Source: Ignavibacteria bacterium (GTDB lineage: Bacteria; Bacteroidota; Ignavibacteria; UBA10030). From it: a DNA stretch of 64,000 bases. A program made the position numbers and the translations under genes. The notes beneath the pieces are model-generated. The model made no database searches. It was not told where the DNA came from and worked only from the letters and a program-made list of their open reading frames with translations. The stretch is taken from the NCBI GenBank assembly GCA_016873805.1, contig VGVZ01000005.1, positions 59,593 through 123,592 of the forward strand, in the 5' to 3' direction. Below are positions 24,622-27,217 of this stretch, piece after piece; within the stretch, counting starts at the first letter, position 1, and the number at the start of each line of letters is the position of its first letter.

Positions 24622-25668
24622 ATGGTCGGAATCGTGGGATATGGCGCGTACCTTCCTCGCTACCGGATCAAAGCCGAGACGATTGCTCGGCAGTGGGGGG
24701 CAGATGCAGAGGCAATCAAGCGGGGGCTTCAACTCACCGAAAAAACCGTTCCCGGACAGGACGAGGACACGATCACAATTTCCGTGGAGGCGGCCCGCGG
24801 CGCGATCCAGAGGGCGCAGATCGATCCGCAGGAAATTGGCGCAGTCTACATCGGATCCGAATCCCATCCATACGCAGTCAAACCGAGCGGAACGGTTCTG
24901 ATTGACGCACTGGGAATTGGACCGCATGTTCATGTCGCAACAAATGAGTTCGCATGCAAGGCCGGTTCGGAGGCGATGTATGTGGCCTACAGCCATGTGA
25001 AGTCCGGAGAAATGAAATACGCACTCGGAATCGGGGCTGATACTTCCCAGGGGGCCCCCGGCGACGCTCTTGAGTATTCTGCTTCGGCGGGAGGAGCGGC
25101 GTTCATCATGGGGACCGAACGCGTCGCGGCAGAGATCCTTTTCACTCATTCGTACACTTCAGACACCCCTGATTTCTGGCGGCGCGAGGGTGAATTCTAT
25201 CCACGACACGCAGGACGATTCACCGGTGATCCGGCGTACTTCAAACACATTGTGGGAGCGGGGCAGGCTCTGCTGGAGAAATCGAAACTTGCGCCGAAGG
25301 ATTTCACACACGCCGTCTTTCACATGCCGAACGGAAAATTTCCGCAGGAAGCCGGTCGTCGACTGGGATTCACCAAGCAGCAACTGGAATTTGGATGGAT
25401 TGTGCCATTGATGGGCAACACCTACTCGGGTTCCTCCCCGACAGGACTTGCCGCGATCCTCGACGTGGCCAATCCGGGCGATCTCATCTTCATGGTGTCG
25501 TTTGGTTCGGGAGCGGGGAGTGATGGATTCGTCTATCGGGTGACCGAAGAGATCAAGGCGATAAAGGATCGCGCGCCGAAGGTGCGATCAATGCTGGACA
25601 ACGGCAAGATTTATCTGGACTACGGCCAGTACACGAAGCATAGACACAAAATCAAACTCAACGAATAA
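24622..25668 (+). CDS. Hydroxymethylglutaryl-CoA synthase, archaeal type
   Basis: [33 protein letters not shown] (catalytic Cys), [29 protein letters not shown]. Confidence 0.9.
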
Positions 25669-25679
25669 GGAGGCCCCCA

Positions 25680-26831
25680 ATGAGAGACGTCTATGTAATC
25701 GGGGCTGGGATGACGCCGTTCGGAGAATTGTGGAACAAGTCGATTCGCGAGATCTTCGTCGATGCGGCCATGTTGGCAATTGAAGATGCCGGTGTCGACC
25801 ACATCGATTCACTGTACGTTGGATCGATGTCTCCGGGATTGTTTGTCGGTCAGGAACATTTGGGACCGGTCGTCGCAGATTTCCTCGGGGTGACTCCAGT
25901 GCCGGCGACGCGCGTCGAATCGGCGTGCGCATCGGGCGGCGTATCGTTTCGGCAGGCTTTTCTCGAGGTGGCTTCGGGCGTGAGTGAGATTGTTCTTGCA
26001 GGAGGCGTGGAGAAAATGACCGATGGCGCCGACGTCACGGAGGCGCTTGCGACCGCAGCCGATCAGGAGTATGAAGTCTACCATGGGGTCACATTTCCAG
26101 GGTTGTACGCCATGATTGCGCGGGCCCACATGCACCAATTCGGGACGACACGCCAACAACTGGCGGAGGTCGCGGTGAAAAATCACCGAAATGGAATGAA
26201 GAATCCAAACGCGCAGTTTCGATCGGAAATCACAAATGAGCAAGTTGTAAAGTCCACGATGGTGGCGGATCCATTGCGGCTTCTCGATTGTTCACCCGTC
26301 AGCGATGGCGGCGCGGGAGTCATCCTGGCATCTGCCGACGTGGCAAAGAAAATGAAGAGCCGCGCTGTCAAGGTGATCGCCTCGACTCAGGCCTCGGACA
26401 CCATTGCCCTCCATGACCGAACCGACCTTACCACACTCGGTGCGGTAGTCCGTGCCGCCGAAAAAGCGTACGCTATGGCAGGGAAGAAGCCGAGCGACGT
26501 CAATCTCGCAGAAGTCCATGATTGTTTCACGATCGCAGAAATCGTGATCTCGGAGGATTTGGGATTCTTCGAGAAGGGGAAAGGGGGAGAGGCCGTTGAG
26601 AAAGGGTTGACCGCTCGAGAATGCGGAAAGATCCCCATCAATTCCAGCGGGGGGCTGAAATCGAAAGGACATCCTGTGGGCGCAACCGGCATTGCTCAGA
26701 TTATCGAACTCTACGAGCAACTCACAGGACGCGGCGGCGAGCGACAGGTGAAGAAGGCAAATATCGGTCTTGCCCAGAACATGGGTGGGAGCGGCGCCAG
26801 CTGTGTCATCCATATCCTGGAGGCCATATGA
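25680..26831 (+). CDS. Acetyl-CoA acetyltransferase (archaeal/SCP-x-type thiolase)
   Basis: [43 protein letters not shown]. Confidence 0.92.
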
Positions 26832-27217
26832 TCTCACCGCGATACGCAAGGGAAATACCACAGCGATATCAACTCGTGGCGGCGCGATGTACGTCGTGTG
26901 GAACAATCGGATTCCCTCCACGACGCGTCTGCAAACACTGCCGCGGCAGACAATTTGAGCCGACAAAGCTCGATAGTGATGGAAAAATCCTCACCTTCAC
27001 GATTATCCGCGTTGGGGCTGATCGGTTTTCGAAGCAGACCCCGTACGCCGTTGCCGTCATCGAGCTCAACGACGGCACTCGACTCACGGCGCAAGTAACC
27101 GATTGCGAGCTGGAAAGTCTTGAAATTGGGCAAAAAGTCCGGCTTGTTTTTCGCAAGATTCAGGAGGATGGAAAAGCAGGAATCCTCTGTTATGGCTACA
27201 AGGCAATCTGTGTCTGA
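26828..27217 (+). CDS. DUF35 Zn-ribbon/OB-fold protein (thiolase/HMGS scaffold subunit)
   Basis: [54 protein letters not shown] overlap with thiolase. Confidence 0.9.

Follow-up and report, generated by a model that had tools for sequence, protein, structure and literature searches.

Archaeal-type HMG-CoA synthase trio next to a citramalate lyase-like AtuA pair in an Ignavibacteria genome with no detected mevalonate enzymes

The window analysed here is a stretch of 64,000 nucleotides from an Ignavibacteria bacterium (GCA_016873805.1, contig VGVZ01000005.1), whose genome is referred to as G000. It carries three consecutive genes for an archaeal-type 3-hydroxy-3-methylglutaryl-CoA (HMG-CoA) synthase, an acetoacetyl-CoA thiolase and a DUF35 protein, referred to simply as the trio. 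This is the textbook trio of archaeal mevalonate synthesis, and in the genomes tested the pathway expected of it was nearly always absent. Because the methylerythritol phosphate (MEP) pathway is used for isoprenoids and no mevalonate enzymes were found in G000, we propose, at somewhat less than an even chance, that HMG-CoA would feed a leucine-catabolic route run in reverse to isovaleryl-CoA. If this is true, many 'hydroxymethylglutaryl-CoA synthase' annotations in uncultured bacteria need re-reading. The three genes are the following:

24622..25668, plus strand: archaeal-type HMG-CoA synthase (HMGCS), 348 amino acids, tetrad E80/C112/H234/N266 (TIGR00748, NF003274, 6esq_I)
25680..26831, plus strand: archaeal/SCP2-type acetoacetyl-CoA thiolase (ACAT), 383 amino acids (NF004720, 6esq_A)
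26828..27217, plus strand: DUF35 scaffold protein with zinc ribbon and OB fold, 129 amino acids (PF12172, PF01796, 6esq_E)

The initial annotation, made from the letters of the window, had described three genes here; they are open reading frames (ORFs) on one strand, and their coordinates matched exactly. The 11-nt gap between the HMGCS and thiolase genes (25669-25679) and the ATGA overlap between the thiolase and DUF35 genes (ATG at 26828, TGA ending at 26831) were found as described, and so were the quoted synthase motifs: GSESHP at residue 78, FACK inside EFACKAG at 109 and FHMP inside VFHMPNG at 232. When HMGCS was compared with family models, it exceeded the cut-offs of both archaeal-type equivalogs, TIGR00748 (492.7 bits; cut-off 353.35) and NF003274 (515.3 bits; cut-off 244), and failed the MvaS-type model TIGR01835 (105.1 bits; cut-off 360.35). 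The MvaS structures of S. aureus and E. faecalis matched it only at E values of 1e-19 to 1e-14. The thiolase passed the subfamily model NF004720 (535.2 bits; cut-off 420) and missed the M. thermolithotrophicus-type equivalog NF053570 (550.7 bits; cut-off 600). The DUF35 protein passed both PF12172 (43.3 bits) and PF01796 (65.3 bits), and both of its CxxC cysteine pairs are kept (CTSC at 21 and CKHC at 35).

The best solved relatives of the three proteins were chains I, A and E of 6ESQ/6ET9, the complex of Methanothermococcus thermolithotrophicus, with 427.7, 397.8 and 114.4 bits, each over nearly the full length; for HMGCS, the match to 6esq_I was full length with an E value of 3.6e-127. The available part of Liao et al. 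(2026, PMC12960953) states that the archaeal complex requires the synthase tetrad E82/C114/H238/N270 and the histidine of the thiolase HDxF motif. The tetrad of HMGCS aligns with these residues in 6esq_I, and the thiolase keeps its CxS (ACASG at 82), HDxF (HDCF at 280) and GHx (GHP at 330) motifs, which the same source also describes as essential. Moreover, HMGCS is 77-86% identical to copies in other orders and families, compared with 62-66% for the flanking aspS, and thus appears to be under strong constraint, more conserved than its housekeeping flanks. Since the catalytic motifs are intact and HMGCS is so highly conserved, the trio is taken as a probably active complex that would condense three acetyl-CoA to HMG-CoA. 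The archaeal-type HMG-CoA-forming complex predicted earlier therefore agrees with all of the in silico comparisons, namely the 6ESQ matches, the kept motifs and the low scores against MvaS and PhlA.

Carriage of such a trio by bacteria is already known. Liao et al. (2026, Nat Commun 17:2196, PMC12960953) counted 1,030 bacterial HMGS/ACAT/DUF35 loci, of which 1,001 had no secondary-metabolism neighbours and were left uncharacterised in the available part of the paper. The present locus fits the latter class: no polyketide synthase (PKS) or nonribosomal peptide synthetase (NRPS) gene was seen among the neighbouring ORFs scanned, which are housekeeping genes. Our literature searches found no paper on Ignavibacteria and HMG-CoA synthase. 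According to the same part of PMC12960953, the synthase tetrad has been lost in the repurposed bacterial complexes PhlACB, MucABC and an example from P. fluorescens, and the ACAT/HMGS-DUF35 complex of P. fluorescens only cleaves acetoacetyl-CoA. In the trio, unlike that representative, the tetrad is intact. The trio might still be a repurposed acyltransferase of the PhlACB/MucABC type, carrying out Friedel-Crafts C-acetylation with a non-catalytic HMGS-like subunit, as the three folds are the same and lie in one operon, and PhlA, PhlC and PhlB are detectable relatives. These relatives stand far behind the 6ESQ chains, however, the archaeal-complex scores being two to three times higher (PhlA against HMGCS, 180-187 bits; the archaeal enzyme, 427.7). 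Both the E-C-H-N tetrad and the HDCF motif, whose loss defines those enzymes, are kept, and the neighbours are housekeeping genes instead of PKS or NRPS genes. Hence, the acyltransferase reading is disfavoured, and we give it hardly any weight.

We then consider the isoprenoid enzymes of G000, a 3.2-Mb assembly of 60 contigs with 99.13% completeness. The whole-genome search for hmgR and mevalonate kinase found neither: HMG-CoA reductase (PF00368) gave no match in G000, with the control search positive in 5 of 14 reference genomes, and the best score for mevalonate kinase (TIGR00549) was 46.2 bits against a cut-off of 163.05. Only two GHMP kinases were present, and these are ispE and thrB. The five MEP genes covered (dxr, ispG, ispE, ispF and ispH) were all found in the genome. 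The dxr match (G000:C2:141844-142992, 485.4 bits, over the cut-off) has one TGA within the matched stretch. Two of the five genes lie in the window, both intact as had been noted:

1918-2808: ispH
35214-35705: ispF

The earlier suggestion that the HMG-CoA may not feed isoprenoids is thus supported on the scale of the genome. Like the M. thermolithotrophicus complex, the trio shows the tetrad, the thiolase motifs and the zinc ribbon in full-length matches, but its host is a bacterium with the MEP pathway and without HMG-CoA reductase or mevalonate kinase, so the product cannot go where archaeal HMG-CoA goes.

A similar result was obtained in other genomes. Among 201 sampled genomes of the window's class, 21 had the trio above the cut-off (22 at E<=1e-30). 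A second sample comprised 21 trio genomes of other phyla, including Krumholzibacteriota, metagenome-assembled genomes labelled Fibrobacteraceae, WOR-3, Coatesbacteria, Gemmatimonadales, Calditrichota, Kapabacteria and others. HMG-CoA reductase occurred in 10 of the 201 class genomes, none of them among the 22 with the trio, and in 1 of the 21 trio genomes of other phyla. No description of such mutual-exclusion counts was found in the literature searched, and the supplements of PMC12960953 may list such loci. A cryptic mevalonate pathway, built from enzymes of unrelated families or encoded in the unassembled 1% of the genome, would restore the role that the trio has in archaea; it may be noted that in many Ignavibacteria loci the gene immediately before the trio is miaA, the product of which uses dimethylallyl diphosphate. 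The absence of the reductase from 22 of 22 class and 20 of 21 other trio genomes, the assignment of both GHMP kinases and the five MEP genes make such a pathway very improbable.

Downstream of the trio lie two genes that the initial annotation had overlooked, and they are the most informative neighbours of the trio. The genes, with those bounding the group, are listed below:

22814-24586, plus strand: aspS, the upstream boundary (NF001750, 854.9 bits), 35 nt from HMGCS
27227..28621, plus strand: AtuA-family large subunit, CmlA-like, 464 amino acids from a TTG start (PF07287, 519.4 bits)
28622..28951, plus strand: AtuA_ferredoxin-like (AtuAfd) small subunit, CmlB-like, 109 amino acids (PF23544, 109.4 bits)
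28968..30072, plus strand: prfB, the downstream boundary (TIGR00020, 495.3 bits for 29140-30072)

The trio had been placed between aspS and prfB. The position of aspS upstream stands, but direct contact with prfB does not, since the two AtuA-family genes intervene. For the AtuA gene, an alternative start is possible at residue 12 (position 27260). The trio and the pair together form an uninterrupted run of five genes on the same strand, spaced by gaps of 0-42 nt.

Searched against the Protein Data Bank (PDB), the single AtuA sequence gave no match, and profile and fold searches were needed. An AlphaFold2 model of the large subunit (pLDDT, the predicted local distance difference test, 95.0; pTM, the predicted template modelling score, 0.92) was searched with Foldseek. 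The top match was 9evf_A, a citramalate lyase - ADP - pyruvate complex (E 1.4e-26; TM 0.78/0.80), and the second match reached only E 5e-4. A profile of 48 AtuA homologues also reached 9erq_A/9evf by sequence (E 8.4e-13), an entry named by its depositors 'Acyclic terpene utilization AtuA family protein | Citramalate lyase, subunit A (cmlA)'. For AtuAfd, which gave no match by sequence alone, the model (pLDDT 87.7) again had 9evf_B as its top match and sole hit below E 0.001 (E 8.9e-4, probability 1.00, TM 0.62/0.64). A protein atlas look-up for AtuA returned the family name only. Among the 150 best AtuA representatives, 42 have 570-640 amino acids and, going by length alone, may be fused forms.

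The two-subunit cmlAB of Raoultella planticola splits citramalate into pyruvate and acetate, as given in the available part of a preprint (bioRxiv 10.64898/2026.01.16.699985), and the available part of a 2015 paper places a DUF1446 gene beside methylaspartate ammonia-lyase in enterobacteria (PMC4682846). Our literature searches found no paper describing the 9ERQ/9EVF structure. Like CmlAB, the present pair combines AtuA and AtuA_ferredoxin domains, its models match chains A and B, and the ILEC and LYExxDP stretches of CmlA align with AtuA. Unlike CmlA, it has a sequence identity of 13-14%, and His219, invariant in the AtuA alignment, is Lys in CmlA; moreover, CmlAB stands in a context of methylaspartate and mesaconate, while the context here is HMG-CoA and methylcrotonyl-CoA carboxylase (MCC). 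Because the models and the profile match the CmlAB citramalate lyase, the pair is predicted to be homologous to a lyase whose substrate is a methyl-branched hydroxy-dicarboxylate. By analogy, it may act on HMG or HMG-CoA, the next higher analogues of citramalate. Such an activity, if true, would connect HMG-CoA-type substrates with the AtuA family, in which citramalate lyase was the first member to have its structure solved.

The coupling of the trio to the pair was surveyed with one genome per species: 547 stretches encode a relative, and the best 80 loci were examined. Of these best loci, 59 are of the Ignavibacteria type, and in 43 of the 59 the sequence continues for 1.8 kb or more beyond the trio. 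The distance from the trio to a downstream AtuA is at most 400 nt in 26 of these 43 loci and at most 1.1 kb in 31; the genes usually run pcm-miaA-trio-AtuA-AtuAfd-prfB or aspS-trio-AtuA-AtuAfd-prfB, and the other 12 have different neighbours. In one class genome and one Krumholzibacteriia locus, AtuA-AtuAfd is found directly upstream of the trio instead. No description of a recurrent coupling of the trio to a CmlAB-type AtuA pair was found in the literature searched.

In mitochondrial ketogenesis, HMGCS2 and HMG-CoA lyase work in series. The trio and an AtuA/AtuAfd lyase could likewise form an HMG-CoA cycle that pulls the thiolase and releases free acetoacetate (or acetate). The tight five-gene run on one strand, the distance of at most 1.1 kb in 31 of the 43 loci with adjacency in another phylum, and the match of both AtuA products to the subunits of a lyase yielding a keto acid and acetate all fit such a cycle, as does the lack of a CoA-transferase and of a canonical lyase in G000 (see below). 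Cleavage on the citramalate pattern, to acetate and acetoacetyl-CoA, would nevertheless amount in sum to plain hydrolysis of acetyl-CoA. In addition, AtuA was missing from 4 of the 22 class trio genomes (G254, G255, G313 and G387) and from 14 of the 21 in other phyla, and it was present in 171 of the 201 class genomes (85%) irrespective of the trio. We regard the cycle as unlikely.

Our proposal that the HMG-CoA enters a leucine-type branch draws on the neighbours of the trio in other phyla. In 6 of the 21 loci of these phyla, WOR-3 and Coatesbacteria included, a carboxyltransferase of about 535 amino acids directly follows the DUF35 gene. It is of the methylcrotonyl-CoA carboxylase beta (MCC-beta) type, with 724 bits to 3u9r_B. 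One Coatesbacteria locus (L145) adds a crotonase and a biotin carboxylase, and two loci (L126, L148) have an acyl-CoA dehydrogenase just upstream of the trio. A canonical HMG-CoA lyase was sought as an HMGL-like protein, and none was found in 16 of the 21 trio genomes of other phyla. In the six genomes with MCC-beta beside the trio, AtuA was absent from all six and HMGL-like proteins from five, the sixth (G409) having one hit of 92 bits and 479 amino acids. No HMG-CoA enzyme other than the trio is therefore evident in those genomes.

The corresponding genes of G000 are not at the trio locus; two of them are the following:

G000:C11:65515-67284: MCC-beta orthologue, beside a Bcd-like acyl-CoA dehydrogenase gene and a MeaB gene
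60143..61042 of the window, plus strand: crotonase-family enoyl-CoA hydratase (PF00378, 204.7 bits), a weak candidate for the HMG-CoA/3-methylglutaconyl-CoA hydratase

The MCC-beta orthologue is 49% identical to the trio-adjacent carboxyltransferases of other phyla. It scored 565.2 bits against 3u9r_B and 555.2 against 8j4z_J, compared with about 250-300 for propionyl-CoA carboxylases (303 for 1vrg_A, a propionyl-CoA carboxylase beta subunit) and 380 for geranyl-CoA carboxylase beta. Biotin carboxylases are encoded elsewhere in the genome. G000 has three crotonases, and the copy in the window is the best match in the genome to the hydratase of locus L145 (37% identity); on NF004227, the gamma-carboxygeranoyl-CoA hydratase model, it reached 182.4 bits, below the cut-off of 426, and its PDB matches were generic crotonases. 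The HMGL-like domain (PF00682) had no match in G000, with a positive control search in 14 of 14 reference genomes. Since no HMGL-like domain was found at all, G000 is without HMG-CoA lyase and LeuA. No LeuC was over the cut-off in G000 either, and the genome seems to lack the canonical isopropylmalate route to leucine. The CoA-transferase family PF01144, to which AibA/AibB belong, also had no match in G000.

Directly upstream of the acyl-CoA dehydrogenase/MCC-beta pair (G000:C11:58000-77900, L164) lies the gene for the MeaB-type GTPase; proteins of this type are chaperones of B12-dependent acyl-CoA mutases. The pair is followed by a 289-residue ORF and a sigma-54 response regulator, and no mutase gene was seen in this stretch.

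The gene set of G000 resembles the Liu pathway in having MCC-beta beside an acyl-CoA dehydrogenase, with a crotonase and biotin carboxylases elsewhere. It is unlike that pathway in lacking HMG-CoA lyase and in having a synthase complex and an AtuA-type lyase at that position. The same logic as proposed here, namely dehydration of HMG-CoA followed by decarboxylation and reduction, is found in the alternative isovaleryl-CoA route of Myxococcus xanthus, which, according to the available part of PMC5004256, worked in E. coli with LiuC, AibA/B and AibC. Unlike the Myxococcus route, of which the present set is not a member, G000 has an archaeal-type synthase instead of MvaS and lacks the AibA/B family, leaving an MCC-type carboxyltransferase as the only decarboxylation candidate.

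In the proposed sequence of reactions, the trio would condense three acetyl-CoA to HMG-CoA, which a crotonase would dehydrate to 3-methylglutaconyl-CoA. An enzyme of the methylcrotonyl-CoA carboxylase type would decarboxylate this to 3-methylcrotonyl-CoA, and the Bcd-like acyl-CoA dehydrogenase would reduce the latter to isovaleryl-CoA. The product could be the branched C5 unit from which iso-fatty acids start, and perhaps leucine as well, LeuA and LeuC being absent from the genome. AtuA/AtuAfd would be a CmlAB-type lyase at the same node; its substrate would be a 3-hydroxy-3-methyl-dicarboxylate, for example HMG-CoA, and it might stand in for the missing HMG-CoA lyase during leucine breakdown. 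If true, the proposal would explain branched starter units in leucine-auxotrophic bacteria rich in iso-fatty acids. A wider version would have a mevalonate-independent HMG-CoA pathway across Fibrobacterota-Chlorobiota-Bacteroidota and neighbouring candidate phyla. Acetyl-CoA would be converted to isovaleryl-CoA through the reversed MCC, hydratase and dehydrogenase steps, and leucine could follow after reductive carboxylation without the isopropylmalate pathway. In this version AtuA/AtuAfd would be a 3-hydroxy-3-alkylglutaryl-CoA lyase of the CmlAB type that replaces HMG-CoA lyase, this being also the function of Pseudomonas AtuA. We consider the wider version doubtful.

Several observations weigh against the reversed route. 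Its direction of flux is one that we infer, and biotin carboxylases normally carboxylate; decarboxylation would need an MCC-type enzyme to run in reverse, whereas the myxobacterial route uses AibA/B, which is absent here. The hydratase assignment is weak, as no specific model was passed. MCC-beta (183 of the 201 class genomes) and AtuA are near-universal in the class and the trio occurs in 21-22, so the branch works without the trio, and without it is most simply leucine catabolism. A synthase placed beside a putative lyase for one metabolite would be futile if both were active together. The adjacency of AtuA may have been inherited from one ancestral arrangement, and the trio genes are packed equally tightly against the unrelated aspS and prfB. 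Cultured Ignavibacteria contain predominantly iso-fatty acids, and our literature search for iso-C15 fatty acids in this group found no direct data. Whether the trio goes together with the loss of LeuA was also considered, and this found no clear support: HMGL-like proteins occurred in 8 of the 22 trio genomes compared with 101 of the 201 overall, 100 being without any.

Some of the same facts fit a catabolic role, in which leucine or isovalerate would be broken down, AtuA/AtuAfd cleaving HMG-CoA and the thiolase splitting acetoacetyl-CoA. Alternatively, the complex itself would run in reverse, from HMG-CoA and two CoA to three acetyl-CoA, and the thioester lost by the lyase route would be saved. 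The set of acyl-CoA dehydrogenase, MCC-beta and crotonase is common in the class without the trio, and in WOR-3 and Coatesbacteria the trio replaces the missing lyase in a Liu-like cluster. On general thermodynamic grounds, the thiolase and synthase reactions taken together are close to equilibrium. Cleavage of acetoacetyl-CoA by a bacterial ACAT/HMGS-DUF35 complex, as reported in the available part of PMC12960953, also fits, but that Pseudomonas complex had lost the tetrad, which in the trio is fully kept under strong constraint. The synthase step, moreover, includes a thioester hydrolysis that is practically irreversible. A catabolic role is, in our judgement, rather improbable.

Another alternative is that the trio uses longer substrates, a 3-oxoacyl-CoA being converted to a 3-hydroxy-3-alkylglutaryl-CoA on which an AtuA-type lyase and an MCC-type carboxylase would act, as in Atu metabolism. 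The neighbouring family is named after acyclic terpene utilisation, the crotonase of the window scores on the gamma-carboxygeranoyl-CoA hydratase model, below its cut-off, and the thiolase falls just under the cut-off of the acetoacetyl-CoA thiolase equivalog. Against this, the alignment of HMGCS to the archaeal enzyme spans the whole protein (427.7 bits), and the carboxyltransferase scores 565 bits on MCC-beta compared with 380 on geranyl-CoA carboxylase beta. Hence, we think other substrates distinctly improbable.

Returning to the leucine-type branch, the association of AtuA with it was evaluated across the class. Both AtuA and MCC-beta were present in 167 genomes, AtuA only in 4, MCC-beta only in 16 and neither in 14, a contrast in which ten AtuA-negative genomes were inferred by elimination and which is inflated by relatedness. 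In one genome (G053) the two genes are adjacent. Because of this co-occurrence and adjacency, AtuA belongs with the MCC branch. In the atu cluster of Pseudomonas, AtuA likewise goes with an MCC-type branch.

Among the matches listed, HMGL-like proteins of about 300 amino acids (120-165 bits) were seen in 9 of the 30 AtuA-negative and 8 of the 171 AtuA-positive genomes. This is the size of HMG-CoA lyase, and 4 of those 9 AtuA-negative genomes are also without MCC-beta. The pattern would fit a replacement of AtuA/AtuAfd and HMG-CoA lyase by each other.

When gene order was compared, the order within the trio was kept in all 73 loci that reach past the thiolase, among the best 80 of 547, except for L149, where the thiolase is below thresholds. 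Within the class sample, the trio is patchy over families, and it is absent from all 11 other genomes of the window's own family. Three trio-less relatives of the window's family or order (L054-L056) have aspS-AtuA-AtuAfd-prfB-lolC-lolC-lolD, which is the same site minus the trio; in a further one (L053), only aspS-AtuA-AtuAfd is visible. No description of such a presence/absence polymorphism of the trio at one locus was found in the literature searched. The window's order, aspS-trio-AtuA-prfB, recurs in other families. In a protein search, the matches listed have 81-99% identity.

A quick tree of 93 HMGCS copies (midpoint root; no outgroup or archaeal sequences; support from the Shimodaira-Hasegawa-like approximate likelihood ratio test, SH-aLRT, only) grouped the copies by context and phylum, the window's copy lying within the aspS-context clade next to a genome of the same order. 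No integrase was found among the 20 neighbouring ORFs scanned, and the only repeats were short imperfect intragenic matches, in agreement with what the initial annotation had remarked on both. The G + C content along the locus is 0.52-0.57 without a step. A recent horizontal insertion of the trio was considered and set aside in view of these features, the shared gene order and the placement in the tree. The history of the trio reads, from these comparisons, as a probable old residence with repeated loss and not as a recent transfer. If so, the adjacency of AtuA may count as few independent events.

A group of divergent HMGCS copies (L036, L039, L041, L042, L046, L050 and L051, from families f46 and f47 and from G392 of f7) clustered with the Coatesbacteria copy of L145 (SH-aLRT 100) and away from the clade that holds most Ignavibacteria copies, which may point to two trio lineages or to a transfer.

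As regards the flanking genes, prfB starts at 28968, 16 nt past the AtuAfd stop, and has a +1 programmed frameshift site (CTTTGAC) at 29034, so that the ORF 29140-30072 is only its post-shift part. Scans for promoters (5, against 3.9 in shuffled sequence) and terminators (10, against 8.7) gave counts no higher than in shuffled sequence and are thus uninformative on operon structure. Beyond prfB, positions 30109-33247 hold two tandem permease genes of the lolC/E type followed by lolD. The ORF listed for lolD (32141-33247) overlaps the second permease gene; the LolD match begins at residue 144, and the true start is probably near 32570.

Two further features were seen near the trio in other genomes. 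In four related loci (L075, L079, L086 and L097), a small nucleotidyltransferase gene lies between aspS and HMGCS; in three of them a HEPN gene comes next, an arrangement resembling a toxin-antitoxin pair. Three loci of the Krumholzibacteriota type (L092, L093 and L105) carry, a few kb before the trio, a gene in which the alpha and beta parts of a 2-oxoacid dehydrogenase E1 are fused; its product in L093 has 728 amino acids with E1_dh and transketolase domains. The fused gene is possibly another link to branched-chain keto-acid metabolism.

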